In this document: positions 15,359-28,348 of the stretch, one piece after another
Layout: the number at the start of each line of letters is the position of its first letter
How positions within the stretch are numbered: the first letter of the stretch is position 1
Assembly: GCA_963702895.1 (NCBI GenBank)
Contig: OY969767.1
Span: 1 to 64,000 of the forward strand
Direction: 5' to 3'
Length of the DNA: 64,000 bases
Source of the DNA: an uncultured Elusimicrobia bacterium
GTDB taxonomy: Bacteria > Elusimicrobiota > Elusimicrobia > 2-01-FULL-59-12
The notes under the pieces: generated by a model
What the model was told of the DNA's origin: nothing
What the model saw: only the letters and a program-made list of their open reading frames with translations
The model's database searches: none
Made by a program: the position numbers and the translations under genes

Positions 15359-16015
15359 TTAGTTGTCACCCCGGCATGCCCTAAGCCGGGGTCTATCAAA
15401 TTCAGATCGGAATGATGGATCCCGGGTCTCCAAGCACCCGGCGACCCTCCGCCACACGACAGGCGGAGAGCGCCGGGTGTGTGGCGCTCGGCCCGCCGGA
15501 TGTCTGGAGGGCCGGCTTACGTCGCGCCGGGATGACGGCATTATGGTCTCTCCTGCAAGAATTCCCAGCTTCCGGGCCAGGATTTCCAGATTTTCGCAGT
15601 CCTCCCGATTATAACGGAGCAAGAGCTCCAGGGCCTCTTGGTCGCCGCGCTCATAGGCCGCCCAGAGTTTCATCGCCTGAAGGCCATCGACACCTTCGGT
15701 GTCCCGGTGGATCCCAAGCGTTCTTTCCACCCCTTTGAGGCCGCCTTTGAGTTTGCGCTTCCAGCAGTCATACATGAGATCGCGGTGTGGAATGGTCCGG
15801 GCGAGCGCCACCCCCACCCACTTTTCGATGACCGGAAGGTCAAAACCAGTCCCGTTGTAGGTAAAGAGGCGTTCCACTCCCTCCAGGGCTTCCATCAGGG
15901 ATTTCCGATCAATCTTGGGGGCGATGAGCTGGAGGGTGGACTCGCCGCTCTTGTAGATGCCGATGACGGTGATGGTCCGTTCCCAGGACGTCTCGATGTC
16001 AAGGTAAGCAAACAC
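15359..16015 (-). CDS. RNase H-like (YprB/RNase_H_2, DEDD) exonuclease-domain protein with a repeat-derived C-terminal tail
   Basis: YLDIET, TYNGTGFDLP, HRDLM, GGLKGVER.LGI, LLRYNRED. The last ~60 codons run through the REP element. Confidence 0.8.
   Translation of the reverse strand: MFAYLDIETSWERTITVIGIYKSGESTLQLIAPKIDRKSLMEALEGVERLFTYNGTGFDLPVIEKWVGVALARTIPHRDLMYDCWKRKLKGGLKGVERTLGIHRDTEGVDGLQAMKLWAAYERGDQEALELLLRYNREDCENLEILARKLGILAGETIMPSSRRDVSRPSRHPAGRAPHTRRSPPVVWRRVAGCLETRDPSFRSEFDRPRLRACRGDN
15365..15536. repeat. Inverted REP pair with a 90-bp mini-hairpin cassette (15426-15515) inside the right REP stem
   Basis: Removing 15426-15515 restores gatggatcccggc..gccgggatgac. The cassette is 86/90 identical to 17188-17277. 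Confidence 0.85.
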
Positions 16016-17123: not shown

Positions 17124-17293
17124 GTCATCCCCCCCGGTTGTAAGGGGGGGATCCATCAGGTCATGAGATCGACTTGATGGATCCCGGGTCTCCACACTCC
17201 CGGCGACCCTCCGCCACACGACAGGCGGAGAGCGCCGGGTGTGTGGCGCTCGGCCCGCCGGAAGTCTGGAGGGCCGGCTTTCGCCGGGATGAC
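17124..17293. repeat. Inverted REP pair with the second copy of the 90-bp mini-hairpin cassette (17188-17277)
   Basis: gtcatccccccc..gggggggatccatca ... tgatggatcccgg[cassette]ctttcgccgggatgac. Confidence 0.85.
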
Positions 17294-17329
17294 AGATGAT
17301 TGTTCGATTGCGAAGAATGTCCTCTCGAC

Positions 17330-26280: not shown

Positions 26281-27912
26281 CTACTCCGGACGCAGCTGTT
26301 TCATGAACTCTGGGATTTCCTTGTCGCCTGGGTCGATCTCGAGGACTTTGGACCAGAGTTTACGCGCGCGTGTGTGGTCATCGAGGAGGAAGAACGCCGA
26401 TCCCATGATTTTCAATGACGTTAAATCATTTGGATTAAAGTCCAGAATGTCCTGGCATTTCTTGATGGCGACATCATAGCGGCCCTCCAGGATCGCCTGC
26501 CTTGCGTCAAAGACCTTTTGATCGATGGGCGAGAAGAGTTCAGGACCTTTCGGAGGATCCGTTTTGTCCATGTTCGCTTCCGCCTCAATCTTGTTCAACA
26601 GAGACAAGAGTTTGTCGTTCTTGGGGTCTTTGTAGTAAGCCTGCCGCAGCGAGGCGACCGTCCCTTTCACATCATTGTTGGCGTAATAAAGGAGAGCCTT
26701 TCGGGTCATTTGCGCCGACTCCTCTTGTCCCATCGAGCTGGGCACGGTTGCCACCACTTTCTGGAATCTTTCCGCGAGGGTCTGGACATGCTTATTGGTG
26801 GGGTCGGCATCCAGCGCCGCCTGGAGTTGTTCCTGCACCATCAGATAATTGCCCTTTTGCGCGGCGCCAAACGCCTTTTGGACCATCTGGTTGACATTCT
26901 CCTCACGGCGCTCCAGGACCGATCGGCCGAACTTCCAGGAGACGCCCATGCGTGTCGAGCTGCCCAAGGCATGAAGTCCAATCGAGTAATCCAGAGTGAC
27001 CGATTTGATGGTGTAGCCAAATCCAACGTCCGTTTCCCGGATGCCTTCACCGAGGCCTCCTTGCACGCCAAAGCGGCCCTTAAAGCGTTTAGAAAAACCA
27101 AATTCGCCGCCCATGTGCCATCCGAGACTGGCGCGCGCGCTCTTGTCGATATCAAAGGCAAGGAGCAGGCGCTTTTTAAAGAACTGATCCGATACGCCAA
27201 ACCGAAACATGAGCGGCATGACGTCTTCGGTATCCCCGGAGACTTTCGCGTAGACGTTTTTCATCACCAGGCCCAGCCGCCTTCGCCCTTCTTTCATGTC
27301 GATCAGGGCGCCCAAGTCCGCGGTTAAGGAGGAGTCCGAGGACGTGTCCACGCTTCGAGAGAGTTTGTTCAAGGCTGTTCCGATCGAAACACGATCGACC
27401 ACCTTACGGCCATACGACCAGCTCAGGGCCGACTCTTCGACAGCGAAGTTTCCTGCCGTGTTGTAGCTTGTGTATTGCTGGGTGGTGGAATCATACGTGG
27501 CGGTGACTTTCTCAAAGCCGGCGCTCGCCAGCTTTGCCATGCTCAGACCCCAGGCGCTTCCCCCCTTTTTCGAGGGCTTGACGAAGGCGTAGTAGTCAAG
27601 AGTTGTGTCCGCGAAGAGTGTGGCTTTCATCAGCGTCAGTTCCTTGCGAGTCAGCTGGGAAAGACCGGCGGGGTTCCAGTACCCGGCGCTCGCGTCATCG
27701 GCCACACCGACGAAAGCAGCTCCCATGGCGAGGGACCTTGCGCCGGCGCCGTAGGAGAGCCATTGGCCAGGCTGACCGCCTGTGCCCGCGGCTTGGAGGG
27801 AAGACAGAGGAAGGAGAAGGGAGACAGCCACAAGAAACGCGAAAGCATTCCCTGTGCTTCCAGAGAATGAATGCGAAACCGCACGTTGGATCCGGACGAG
27901 TCGGTTCGTCAT
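26281..27912 (-). CDS. PorV/PorQ (FadL-like) outer-membrane beta-barrel protein with C-terminal TPR domains
   Basis: Signal-like segment, then GARSLAMGAAFVGVADDASAGYWNPAGL, amphipathic beta strands and a helical TPR tail. Start set to ATG 27912, just downstream of the riboswitch. Confidence 0.85.
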   Translation of the reverse strand: MTNRLVRIQRAVSHSFSGSTGNAFAFLVAVSLLLPLSSLQAAGTGGQPGQWLSYGAGARSLAMGAAFVGVADDASAGYWNPAGLSQLTRKELTLMKATLFADTTLDYYAFVKPSKKGGSAWGLSMAKLASAGFEKVTATYDSTTQQYTSYNTAGNFAVEESALSWSYGRKVVDRVSIGTALNKLSRSVDTSSDSSLTADLGALIDMKEGRRRLGLVMKNVYAKVSGDTEDVMPLMFRFGVSDQFFKKRLLLAFDIDKSARASLGWHMGGEFGFSKRFKGRFGVQGGLGEGIRETDVGFGYTIKSVTLDYSIGLHALGSSTRMGVSWKFGRSVLERREENVNQMVQKAFGAAQKGNYLMVQEQLQAALDADPTNKHVQTLAERFQKVVATVPSSMGQEESAQMTRKALLYYANNDVKGTVASLRQAYYKDPKNDKLLSLLNKIEAEANMDKTDPPKGPELFSPIDQKVFDARQAILEGRYDVAIKKCQDILDFNPNDLTSLKIMGSAFFLLDDHTRARKLWSKVLEIDPGDKEIPEFMKQLRPE

Positions 27913-27918
27913 GTCTTC

Positions 27919-28078
27919 TTTCGGTAACCCCGCTAGCCTCGATGTTCTGGGCGGCCCGGAGTCCGCCACACTTCTGGCGGACGATGCATTCGCATCGGCT
28001 TTGCGTCCCCGTCTTACGACGCACGCCACACTTCTGGCGCGTCCGCCGGTCTTCTGGCGGAGGTTTGCCTTTGTCGCT
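27919..28078 (-). ncRNA. c-di-GMP-I (GEMM) riboswitch interrupted by two hairpin-pair insertions
   Basis: Minus strand reads GGCAAACC[40 nt]CGTC-GTAA-GACG-GG-GACGCAAAGCC[36 nt]TCCGG-GCC..GGC-TAGCGGGGTTACCGAA. This matches the class-I consensus once 28022-28061 and 27961-27996 are removed. Confidence 0.85.
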
Positions 28079-28127
28079 TTTTGGCCCCGTCTCCCCGAGA
28101 GTCCGAGGAGAACTATGCTACGGTCTG

Positions 28128-28155
28128 AGTATAAGGAAACGACACGTTATTGCCA
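28128..28155 (-). promoter_or_regulatory. Candidate promoter for the riboswitch/porV-like transcript
   Basis: TGGCAA (28155-28150), 16 bp, TATACT (28133-28128). Confidence 0.4.
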
Positions 28156-28348
28156 CTTATTTCCAGTGGTGGTTAAGCAATGTGTCGAAAAAACGATAGG
28201 AATGTGGGGTTATAAAGAACTGGCTGATTTTGCGATTCGAAATGAAACCGACATGTTAAATCTTCTATTTTCCCCCACCTCAACGATTTGTAAATGATTT
28301 AAAACGTGCCCGAGACCATGGGGATGAGGGCTATGGAGCGGATGGATC

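Follow-up and report, generated by a model that had tools for sequence, protein, structure and literature searches.

The window considered here, i.e., the whole stretch of 64,000 nt which was analysed, carries on its minus strand a gene coding for an outer-membrane protein of the PorV/PorQ family (Table 1). This PorV-like gene is followed by a frame of 1,609 aa which ends in TPR. Upstream, and in the same orientation, one open frame extends over 10,736 aa (31591-63801, minus strand); after it comes a 1,099-aa frame which weakly matches a T9SS-dependent M6-like protein (E 0.001). Directly before the PorV/PorQ-family gene, the minus strand from 28079 to 27920 reads as a 160-nt class-I c-di-GMP aptamer with three conserved blocks, and the start codon is located 8 nt past this aptamer. 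Two pairs of hairpins are lodged within it, one in helix P2 and one in helix P3. A first-pass annotation of this DNA had proposed either an expanded c-di-GMP-I riboswitch which covariance models may miss or an aptamer disrupted by mini-elements; the coordinates and lengths which it gave for the inserted hairpins proved exact, on the minus strand. Further upstream, a promoter-like element was found by consensus scan, and a block of the form tggc..N..cttatact precedes the aptamer in nine family-level orthologous leaders. The native leader also contains a 26-nt segment with a hairpin of its own which, searched as a repeat by BLAST, returned itself only.

Table 1. Features of the PorV/PorQ-family locus and related repeat copies in the window (A1, alignment of family-level leaders; R1, covariance model of the double-hairpin repeat).
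Feature	Position	Strand	Evidence or remark
PorV/PorQ-family outer-membrane protein, C-terminal TPR region	26281-27912, ATG 27912	-	NCBIfam NF033709 93.9 bits (cut-off 90); Pfam UPF0164 + TPR
Remainder of P3 including 3' strand (GGGGTTACC)	27960-27926	-	RF01051 alignment, A1, fold
P3 insert, 14-nt hairpin + 22-nt repeat-family hairpin	27996-27983, 27982-27961	-	between AGCC and TCCGG; A1 gap versus insert-free alleles
Junction core GACGCAAAGCC	28007-27997	-	invariant block of A1
Distal P2, 4 pairs + GTAA (GNRA) loop	28021-28010	-	sequence
P2 insert, hp1 20 nt + hp2 20 nt	hp1 28061-28042, hp2 28041-28022	-	after second pair of P2 5' strand; R1 match
Core stretch GGCAAACC	28069-28062	-	sequence
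26-nt leader segment with 22-nt hairpin (28111-28090)	28090-28115	-	absent from same-genus G003; present in X2
Promoter-like GTGGCA, 17-nt spacer, TATACT	28128-28156	-	consensus scan; inferred transcription start
Repeat copies in the window	15448-15488 and 17210-17250	.	R1 58.9 bits each

The identity of the aptamer was assessed with the Rfam c-di-GMP-I model (RF01051). Run on the native sequence, as the first-pass annotation had suggested, this model matched 27920-28079 (minus strand) over its whole length (model positions 1-87), with all core blocks, at 23 bits and an E value of 0.032 in a 601-nt search. The native aptamer is hence sub-threshold with regard to the gathering score of 35 bits, because of the insertion penalties, its alignment containing insertions of 50 and 58 nt where the model has 10 and 25, respectively. 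No Rfam family was found at gathering level within the 64-kb window, and the 23-bit score by itself would be weak evidence for an aptamer. The identification is secured by the orthologous leaders, of which the insert-free ones score high. Among the 40 relatives searched (the label G000 being that of the source genome with its native aptamer), 21 have an RF01051 match upstream of the best homologue of the PorV/PorQ-family gene, including eight relatives of the same taxonomic family in which the match directly precedes the homologue. These orthologous leaders score from 39.7 to 70 bits, and the plain aptamers of 84-87 nt found in G004, G007, G009 and G005 reach 65.6-70 bits. Such natural insert-free alleles, for which the first-pass annotation had suggested an alignment of orthologous porV leaders, were used as a stand-in for the insert-deleted sequence in RF01051 scoring. 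The 84-nt leader of G004, at 70 bits, is the most direct comparison: when the nine family-level leaders are aligned with MAFFT (A1), the native sequence has exactly 76 columns of its own (40 + 36), and the shared columns are identical at 74 of 84 positions, with 10 substitutions. Moreover, 45 of the 46 columns which are invariant among the eight other family-level orthologues are kept in the native aptamer, the single change being located in the 5' tail. At the level of sequence, the aptamer core and its orthology to high-scoring, insert-free riboswitches are thereby established, and both the class-I assignment made under the inserts and the suggestion that covariance models may miss this variant are borne out, the latter at the gathering threshold.

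The G of GGC and the C of TTACC are present and invariant in A1, and we tentatively take them to be G20 and C92 of Vc2 on the basis of the Rfam alignment and of the Vc2 numbering. The roles initially assigned to these two residues, favoring c-di-GMP over 3'3'-cGAMP, agree with those sections of PMC6140456 which deal with G20 and C92 in ligand choice and with the G20-to-A change in cGAMP-sensing relatives. Compared with RF01051 and the Vc2 aptamer of Vibrio cholerae, the native aptamer has the same conserved junction sequences (GGCAAA, ACGCAAAGC and GGGGTTACC), a P2 helix with a GNRA loop, a three-helix layout and a position just upstream of the start codon. It differs by its length (160 nt versus about 85) and by the two additional hairpins present in each of P2 and P3, which are predicted to form four-way junctions. 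No tetraloop receptor of the 11-nt type was recognised in P3 among the family-level alleles.

In the predicted fold, the four inserted hairpins have pair probabilities of at least 0.9, except for their outermost pairs (0.55-0.86), consistent with the initial description of self-folding inserts. Within P2, the two hairpins lie flush, both against one another and against the helix segments which enclose them, and the P3 pair is followed by a single T which is bulged in the insert-free alleles. With two basal and four distal pairs closed by a GTAA loop, the native P2 totals six pairs, as found in the insert-free alleles. The same sum, with a GNRA end, was read from the sequences of five of the six insert-bearing P2 helices, the native one included (2+4, 3+3, 3+3, 4+2 and 3+3), the sixth (L001) having 3-4 + 3 pairs. 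A six-pair sum with a GNRA loop is what would be expected of a P2 whose two parts are coaxially stacked in a four-way junction, so that the tetraloop keeps its place. A four-way junction had been suggested by the first-pass annotation, and these data fit it. Its additional rule that the inserts sit 3' of a CC does not hold, since related alleles carry hairpin pairs after GTC or GTCG. Genome repeats tolerated in the peripheral helices of an essential RNA are known from the RNase P RNA of heterocystous cyanobacteria (STRR inserts), which is likewise a case of repeats in a structured RNA, although both the RNA and the repeat type differ. In the 5S rRNA of Halococcus morrhuae, an insertion is accommodated as a four-way junction which leaves the canonical fold undisturbed, according to the part of PMC7530397 devoted to it. 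This helix insertion in a structured RNA is similar to what is predicted here; however, it concerns an rRNA and a single long insert which is not a dispersed repeat, and its structure has been solved, in contrast to the present one.

How the hairpin pairs are distributed among alleles was deduced from 15 leaders, comprising the native one, those of eight genomes and those of six metagenome contigs. The P2 pair is found in four of them (native, G008, G010 and L161) and the P3 pair in two (native and G003), and ten have neither. In A1, the P2 insert is absent from G002, G003, G004, G005, G007 and G009, i.e., also from both same-genus genomes which possess the gene (G002 and G003). The P2 pairs of the native aptamer, G008, G010 and L161 follow helix pair 2, 3, 3 and 4, respectively. 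G008 and G010, which belong to two genera, have a common P2 pair and conserved cores, and their aptamers score 40.4 and 46.4 bits, respectively; the P2 hairpin of these genomes was tried as a repeat and rejected, the pattern finding only itself and chance-level matches. At the P3 site of G003, the identical 14-mer is located at the same position and is followed by a different 20-nt hairpin.

Further alleles were obtained from contigs of public runs (Logan; X1 to X4), which are short and show presence only. The runs found for this stretch were DNA runs of small share, and no RNA run was listed. The flanks of the X2 contig are almost those of the native locus (142/145 and 58/63 identical) and its P3 pair is present. 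It has no P2 pair: 31 letters, corresponding to the 5' core and to an uninterrupted P2 of five pairs with a GNRA loop, replace 28008-28077. Together with the six family genomes, this contig supplies alleles free of the P2 pair, which the first-pass annotation had proposed to look for in relatives. Since the distal P2 stem of X2 differs from the native one by three fully compensated pairs, the two alleles are related by block exchange and not by simple addition of 40 nt, and the history of the P2 insert would accordingly be one of block replacement rather than clean insertion, as far as the aligned sequences tell. In the X3 and X4 contigs, from two other studies, the complete aptamer is present with its two hairpin pairs and is identical at 155/158 positions; there are three differences from the native sequence, and the one tabulated (28032) lies in the hp2 loop. 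In both X3 and X4, the two flanks are unlike the window and the same in both studies, with a new start codon about six bases past the aptamer. These contigs bear directly on whether copies of a repeat were wrongly threaded into the leader by an assembly or chimera artefact. The inserts are members of a repeat family, and repeated sequence is notorious for misleading assemblers; such an artefact is nonetheless extremely improbable, as the genome is a single 2.72-Mb contig, the independent X3 and X4 contigs carry the aptamer with both inserts, the P3 pair is found in X1 and X2, and G003 has the same 14-mer at this site.

The origin of the inserted sequence was traced within the genome itself. 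The word GCCAGAAGNNNGGC has 18 occurrences in the 2.72-Mb genome, and the native aptamer accounts for three. The pattern CCGCC-N8-GGCGG has 97 sites, versus 13-32 for spacers of N4 to N7 and 25 for the reversed control, and two such hairpins stand side by side at 27 places. A covariance model (R1) was built from an alignment (A2) of 20 adjacent hairpin pairs, none of which came from the native riboswitch. With filters off, it matched 28022-28061 with exact ends and over the full model on both strands, at 45.9 bits (plus strand, E 2.1e-7) and 43.7 bits (minus strand, E 5.9e-7), the repeat unit being nearly symmetric. In this repeat, two hairpins stand next to each other, each with about 6 pairs and an 8-nt loop; the loops are of the ACACnnCn and nGnnGTGT types and are roughly reverse complements of each other. 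The P3 insert is matched from 27962 to 27992 (25.8 bits, E 0.0021), as one good unit and a short unrelated hairpin. The 22-nt P3 hairpin has 18/18 bases in common with the copies located at 909345 and 910832; with hp2 the agreement is 16/16. The 14-nt P3 hairpin is unique in the genome. The mini-elements invoked in the first-pass annotation correspond, by this measure, to a full copy of a dispersed repeat in P2 and to a member of the same family in P3, close relatives and an X2-type strain being devoid of the P2 insert.

Genome-wide, R1 gives at least 152 strand-matches at E <= 1, with 150 of 3148 first-look candidates scored, at no fewer than 86 distinct places. By a crude test on open frames, as opposed to gene calls, 43 of these 86 places are in no open frame of at least 150 aa; the open frame measures 150-299 aa at 23 places and at least 300 aa at 20. 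When up to 150 candidates were scored per genome, R1 matched (E <= 0.001) eight of the ten other same-family genomes and none of the 30 other-family genomes of the class, with counts ranging from 0 to 77 strand-matches per genome. The inserts of G008/G010 and of G003 had no R1 match. Several features of the copies deserve mention. The two copies of the window (Table 1) lie each at the centre of one of two near-identical composite palindromic elements (15380-15560 and 17140-17320), of which the genome contains no fewer than four further copies with the same flanks. Many R1 places are flanked by sequence of the GGATT..AACC type, resembling a split tRNA T-arm, and five tandem copies, 82 nt apart and with T-arm-like flanks, are located at C1:2455081-2455450. 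Complementary flanks around the repeat copies were not enriched (at least three flanking pairs in 3 of 65, versus about 5% for the null). Structure-only scans for double hairpins were discarded as a count of the family, being noisy (6726 versus 5697 in a Markov control; 666 versus 442). The AGAAG-type hairpin loop was similarly rejected as a special motif (73 versus 39-92 for nine permuted loops), and a loose hairpin pattern in the window gave 5 matches versus 2.28 expected, 8 of 100 shuffles reaching 5, so that this count is of little value by itself. The likeness of the hp1 loop to the ribosome-binding stretch preceding the start codon (AGAAGAC in both) was treated as a coincidence, because this loop fits the repeat family.

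These properties are reminiscent of bacterial REPs, for which dimers with partners 1-5 bp apart, copies inside genes and copies nested in palindromes are described in the relevant passages of Di Nocera et al. (2013; PMC3733652). Similar to the REP/BIME elements presented in these passages, the Elusimicrobiota repeat is short (about 20 nt), G+C-rich and dispersed at many places. It often forms dimers, with partners 0-2 nt apart, occurs in some instances in frame within genes or within palindromes, and varies strongly in copy number among related genomes. In contrast to these elements, no unpaired GTAG or CGTC tail was recognised among the copies listed and no convincing RAYT was found: no GTAG was seen in these copies and CGTC, where it occurs in some of them, is within the stem, and the search for a RAYT (Y1 transposase) gene gave a single PF01797/Y1_Tnp match, which scored 23.3 bits against a cut-off of 23 and covers profile positions 10-64 of 121 in a frame of 89 aa. 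A further difference is that copies are located inside a riboswitch aptamer, which the same passages of PMC3733652 do not report. Judged from their sequence, the inserts are best described as a lineage-specific, REP-like double-hairpin repeat and not as a new aptamer architecture.

A hairpin site is also present within the PorV/PorQ-family gene. At 27840-27862 (minus strand), about 50-70 nt into the reading frame, a terminator-like hairpin is followed by a T-rich run. At the corresponding site of the orthologues (L035-L042), a different hairpin is found in every case, always in frame and between conserved flanks, the one of G005 being a copy of the double-hairpin repeat (L041:726-768, R1 37.3 bits). 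This site may serve as an attenuator, or it may simply be one more hotspot for hairpins.

To place the native aptamer among its relatives, 51 aptamers were inspected by eye, namely a first set of 22, 20 chosen for length, three more from the source genome and six metagenome leaders. A flush hairpin pair was seen in 14 of them. Three sites are used: P2 on its 5' strand (native, G008/G010, L161, L001 and L071), the junction between GAC and GCAAAG (L073, L074 and L077), and the position after AGCC at the base of P3 (native/G003, L078 and the trio L052/L053/L076). By eye, no fewer than nine separate placements were counted, and none is on a 3' strand. L073, L074 and L077 (G007:C6, G010:C5 and G008:C2), from three genera, have the junction pair in common and score 30-39 bits with RF01051. 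In L052, L053 and L076, from three genera of family f6, the P3 pair after AGCC has stems which are wholly different yet paired, and which are not related to R1; this trio looks like a stable variant with a branched P3.

Such recurrence might indicate that the hairpin pairs are selected functional parts, which could scaffold folding, dock a hairpin-binding factor or tune the kinetics. Flush pairs at three sites of c-di-GMP-I aptamers, never outside the 5' strands and the junction, would be in keeping with this role, as would their number (at least nine placements in 14 of 51 aptamers, 20 of these 51 having been chosen for length), the placements common across genera with compensated stems (G008/G010, L073/L074/L077 and L052/L053/L076) and the expanded aptamer, which precedes two different 5' coding ends and is identical there at 155/158 positions. 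A selected role is nevertheless quite improbable, considering that the P2 pair is missing from the closest relatives and from the 98%-identical X2 strain, that its positions vary (after pair 2, 3 or 4), and that ten of the 15 orthologous leaders have neither pair and score best. Furthermore, the inserted sequence is a generic genome repeat whose copies are also in reading frames and tRNA-like stubs. A related proposal, unlikely though worth entertaining, is that the pair is a structure-seeking mobile element of folded-RNA genes, or a recruited four-way-junction module which tunes c-di-GMP aptamers. If structure-seeking, its sites would be the P2, P3 and junction of riboswitches and, elsewhere, tRNA-like T-arms. 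Fitting either form of this proposal are the placements themselves, all of them on 5' strands or in the junction as judged by eye, three independent ones at the same bond (AGCC|TCCGG or equivalent), and the occurrence of the expanded aptamer, 98% identical, before two different genes.

The interpretation which we favor, and which is probably correct, is that of a working c-di-GMP riboswitch with passenger hairpin repeats in P2 and P3. A flush hairpin pair would turn each of these helices into a four-way junction, in which the original helix halves would stack on each other, P2 retaining six pairs and its GNRA loop and P3 its base. Owing to this stacking, the ligand pocket and the switch are predicted to still work, the hairpins being passengers and not parts concerned with the ligand. 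Regarding expression, the start codon is found 3-9 nt past CCGAA in the nine genome-derived leaders, with a frame open into the mature protein, and at the same spacing in the six metagenome leaders. The 16S rRNA end has the standard CCTCC anti-Shine-Dalgarno and the leaders have A-rich stretches only. With the native start codon only 8 nt past the aptamer, the ribosome landing site must therefore overlap the aptamer 3' strand. We infer that the c-di-GMP-I riboswitch controls translation of the PorV/PorQ-family gene, and the 1,609-aa gene behind it is probably under the same control. Landing of the ribosome on the aptamer 3' strand would couple ligand binding to translation, and in the simplest case the ligand-locked aptamer would hinder initiation, making it an OFF switch; this direction is a guess, leaning only slightly to OFF. 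The six-pair P2 with its GNRA loop, the 45 conserved core columns and the start codon 8 nt downstream led us to read the native RNA as a probably working translational riboswitch. The recurrence of the expanded aptamer in a second context (X3 and X4) also speaks for function, and the proposed whole structure, at -60.3 kcal/mol, compares with an MFE of -67.8 kcal/mol.

Several observations speak against such a working riboswitch. The native P2 insert is two pairs from the ligand junction, nearer than in any other allele seen, and hp2 and the last inserted hairpin (hp4) have a common 16-nt core, so that mispairing is possible. When the RNA is folded on thermodynamics alone, pairing of the basal parts of P2 and P3 has a probability of only about 0.01, a value which is common in this class in the absence of ligand but offers no reassurance. 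The aptamer might thus be a decaying relic inactivated by the insertions, the gene being constitutive or otherwise controlled. In line with this are a sub-threshold score in Rfam, as found for all four RF01051 matches of the genome (18.9-31.3 bits), the proximity of the P2 insert to the binding pocket, the additional 26-nt insert of the leader and the identical cores of hp2 and hp4, which invite misfolding. A relic appears unlikely, however, in view of the retention of 45 of 46 invariant columns, of the P2 length and GNRA loop, and of the conserved start spacing of 3-9 nt. In addition, the tabulated one of the three differences of X3 and X4 falls in an inserted loop, and the older insert-bearing alleles of G008 and G010 have conserved cores. 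Of the two options initially offered, a sub-threshold variant and an aptamer invaded by mini-elements, both descriptions are thus retained, and it is the disruption which finds no support in the conservation of the core.

In the literature searched, supplements aside, no report was found of repeats inside riboswitch aptamers, of four-way-junction variants of c-di-GMP-I or of Elusimicrobia riboswitches. The native aptamer is a cleaner, doubly invaded case accompanied by a natural allele series; it is neither a new ligand class nor a new architecture. This graded series of one riboswitch, with no insert, the P3 pair only, the P2 pair only or both, at known positions, is in effect a natural insertion mutagenesis of an aptamer class whose structure has been solved, and could be used to ask how four-way junctions near the ligand pocket affect folding and affinity. 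For the biology of mobile DNA, riboswitch helices join the places where REP-like hairpins persist, and the native case would illustrate the load of additional RNA which a riboswitch may bear with its core apparently undamaged. Importance also attaches to riboswitch surveys, which depend on the thresholds of covariance models: all four c-di-GMP-I matches of this genome are sub-threshold, and regulons are therefore expected to be under-called in repeat-rich, uncultured lineages.

Large insertions are present in three of these four matches, i.e., in the native aptamer, L001 and L002. In L001 (C1:2340179-2340250 and flanks), two hairpins occupy the P2 5' strand ahead of a short distal stem which ends in a GNRA loop. 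Like the native aptamer, L001 has a P2 hairpin pair and is sub-threshold in Rfam; unlike it, it has the P2 insert only, is weakly matched by R1 (15.8 bits, E 0.33) and has a core closer to the GGC variant RF03167 (32.9 bits). L002 (C1:73953-74134) is a third c-di-GMP-I-like aptamer, of 23.9 bits, whose 5' end is adjoined by a double hairpin with longer loops (R1 26 bits) and whose P3 loop contains a 68-nt, nearly perfect hairpin of CTCAGAA-like heptamers.
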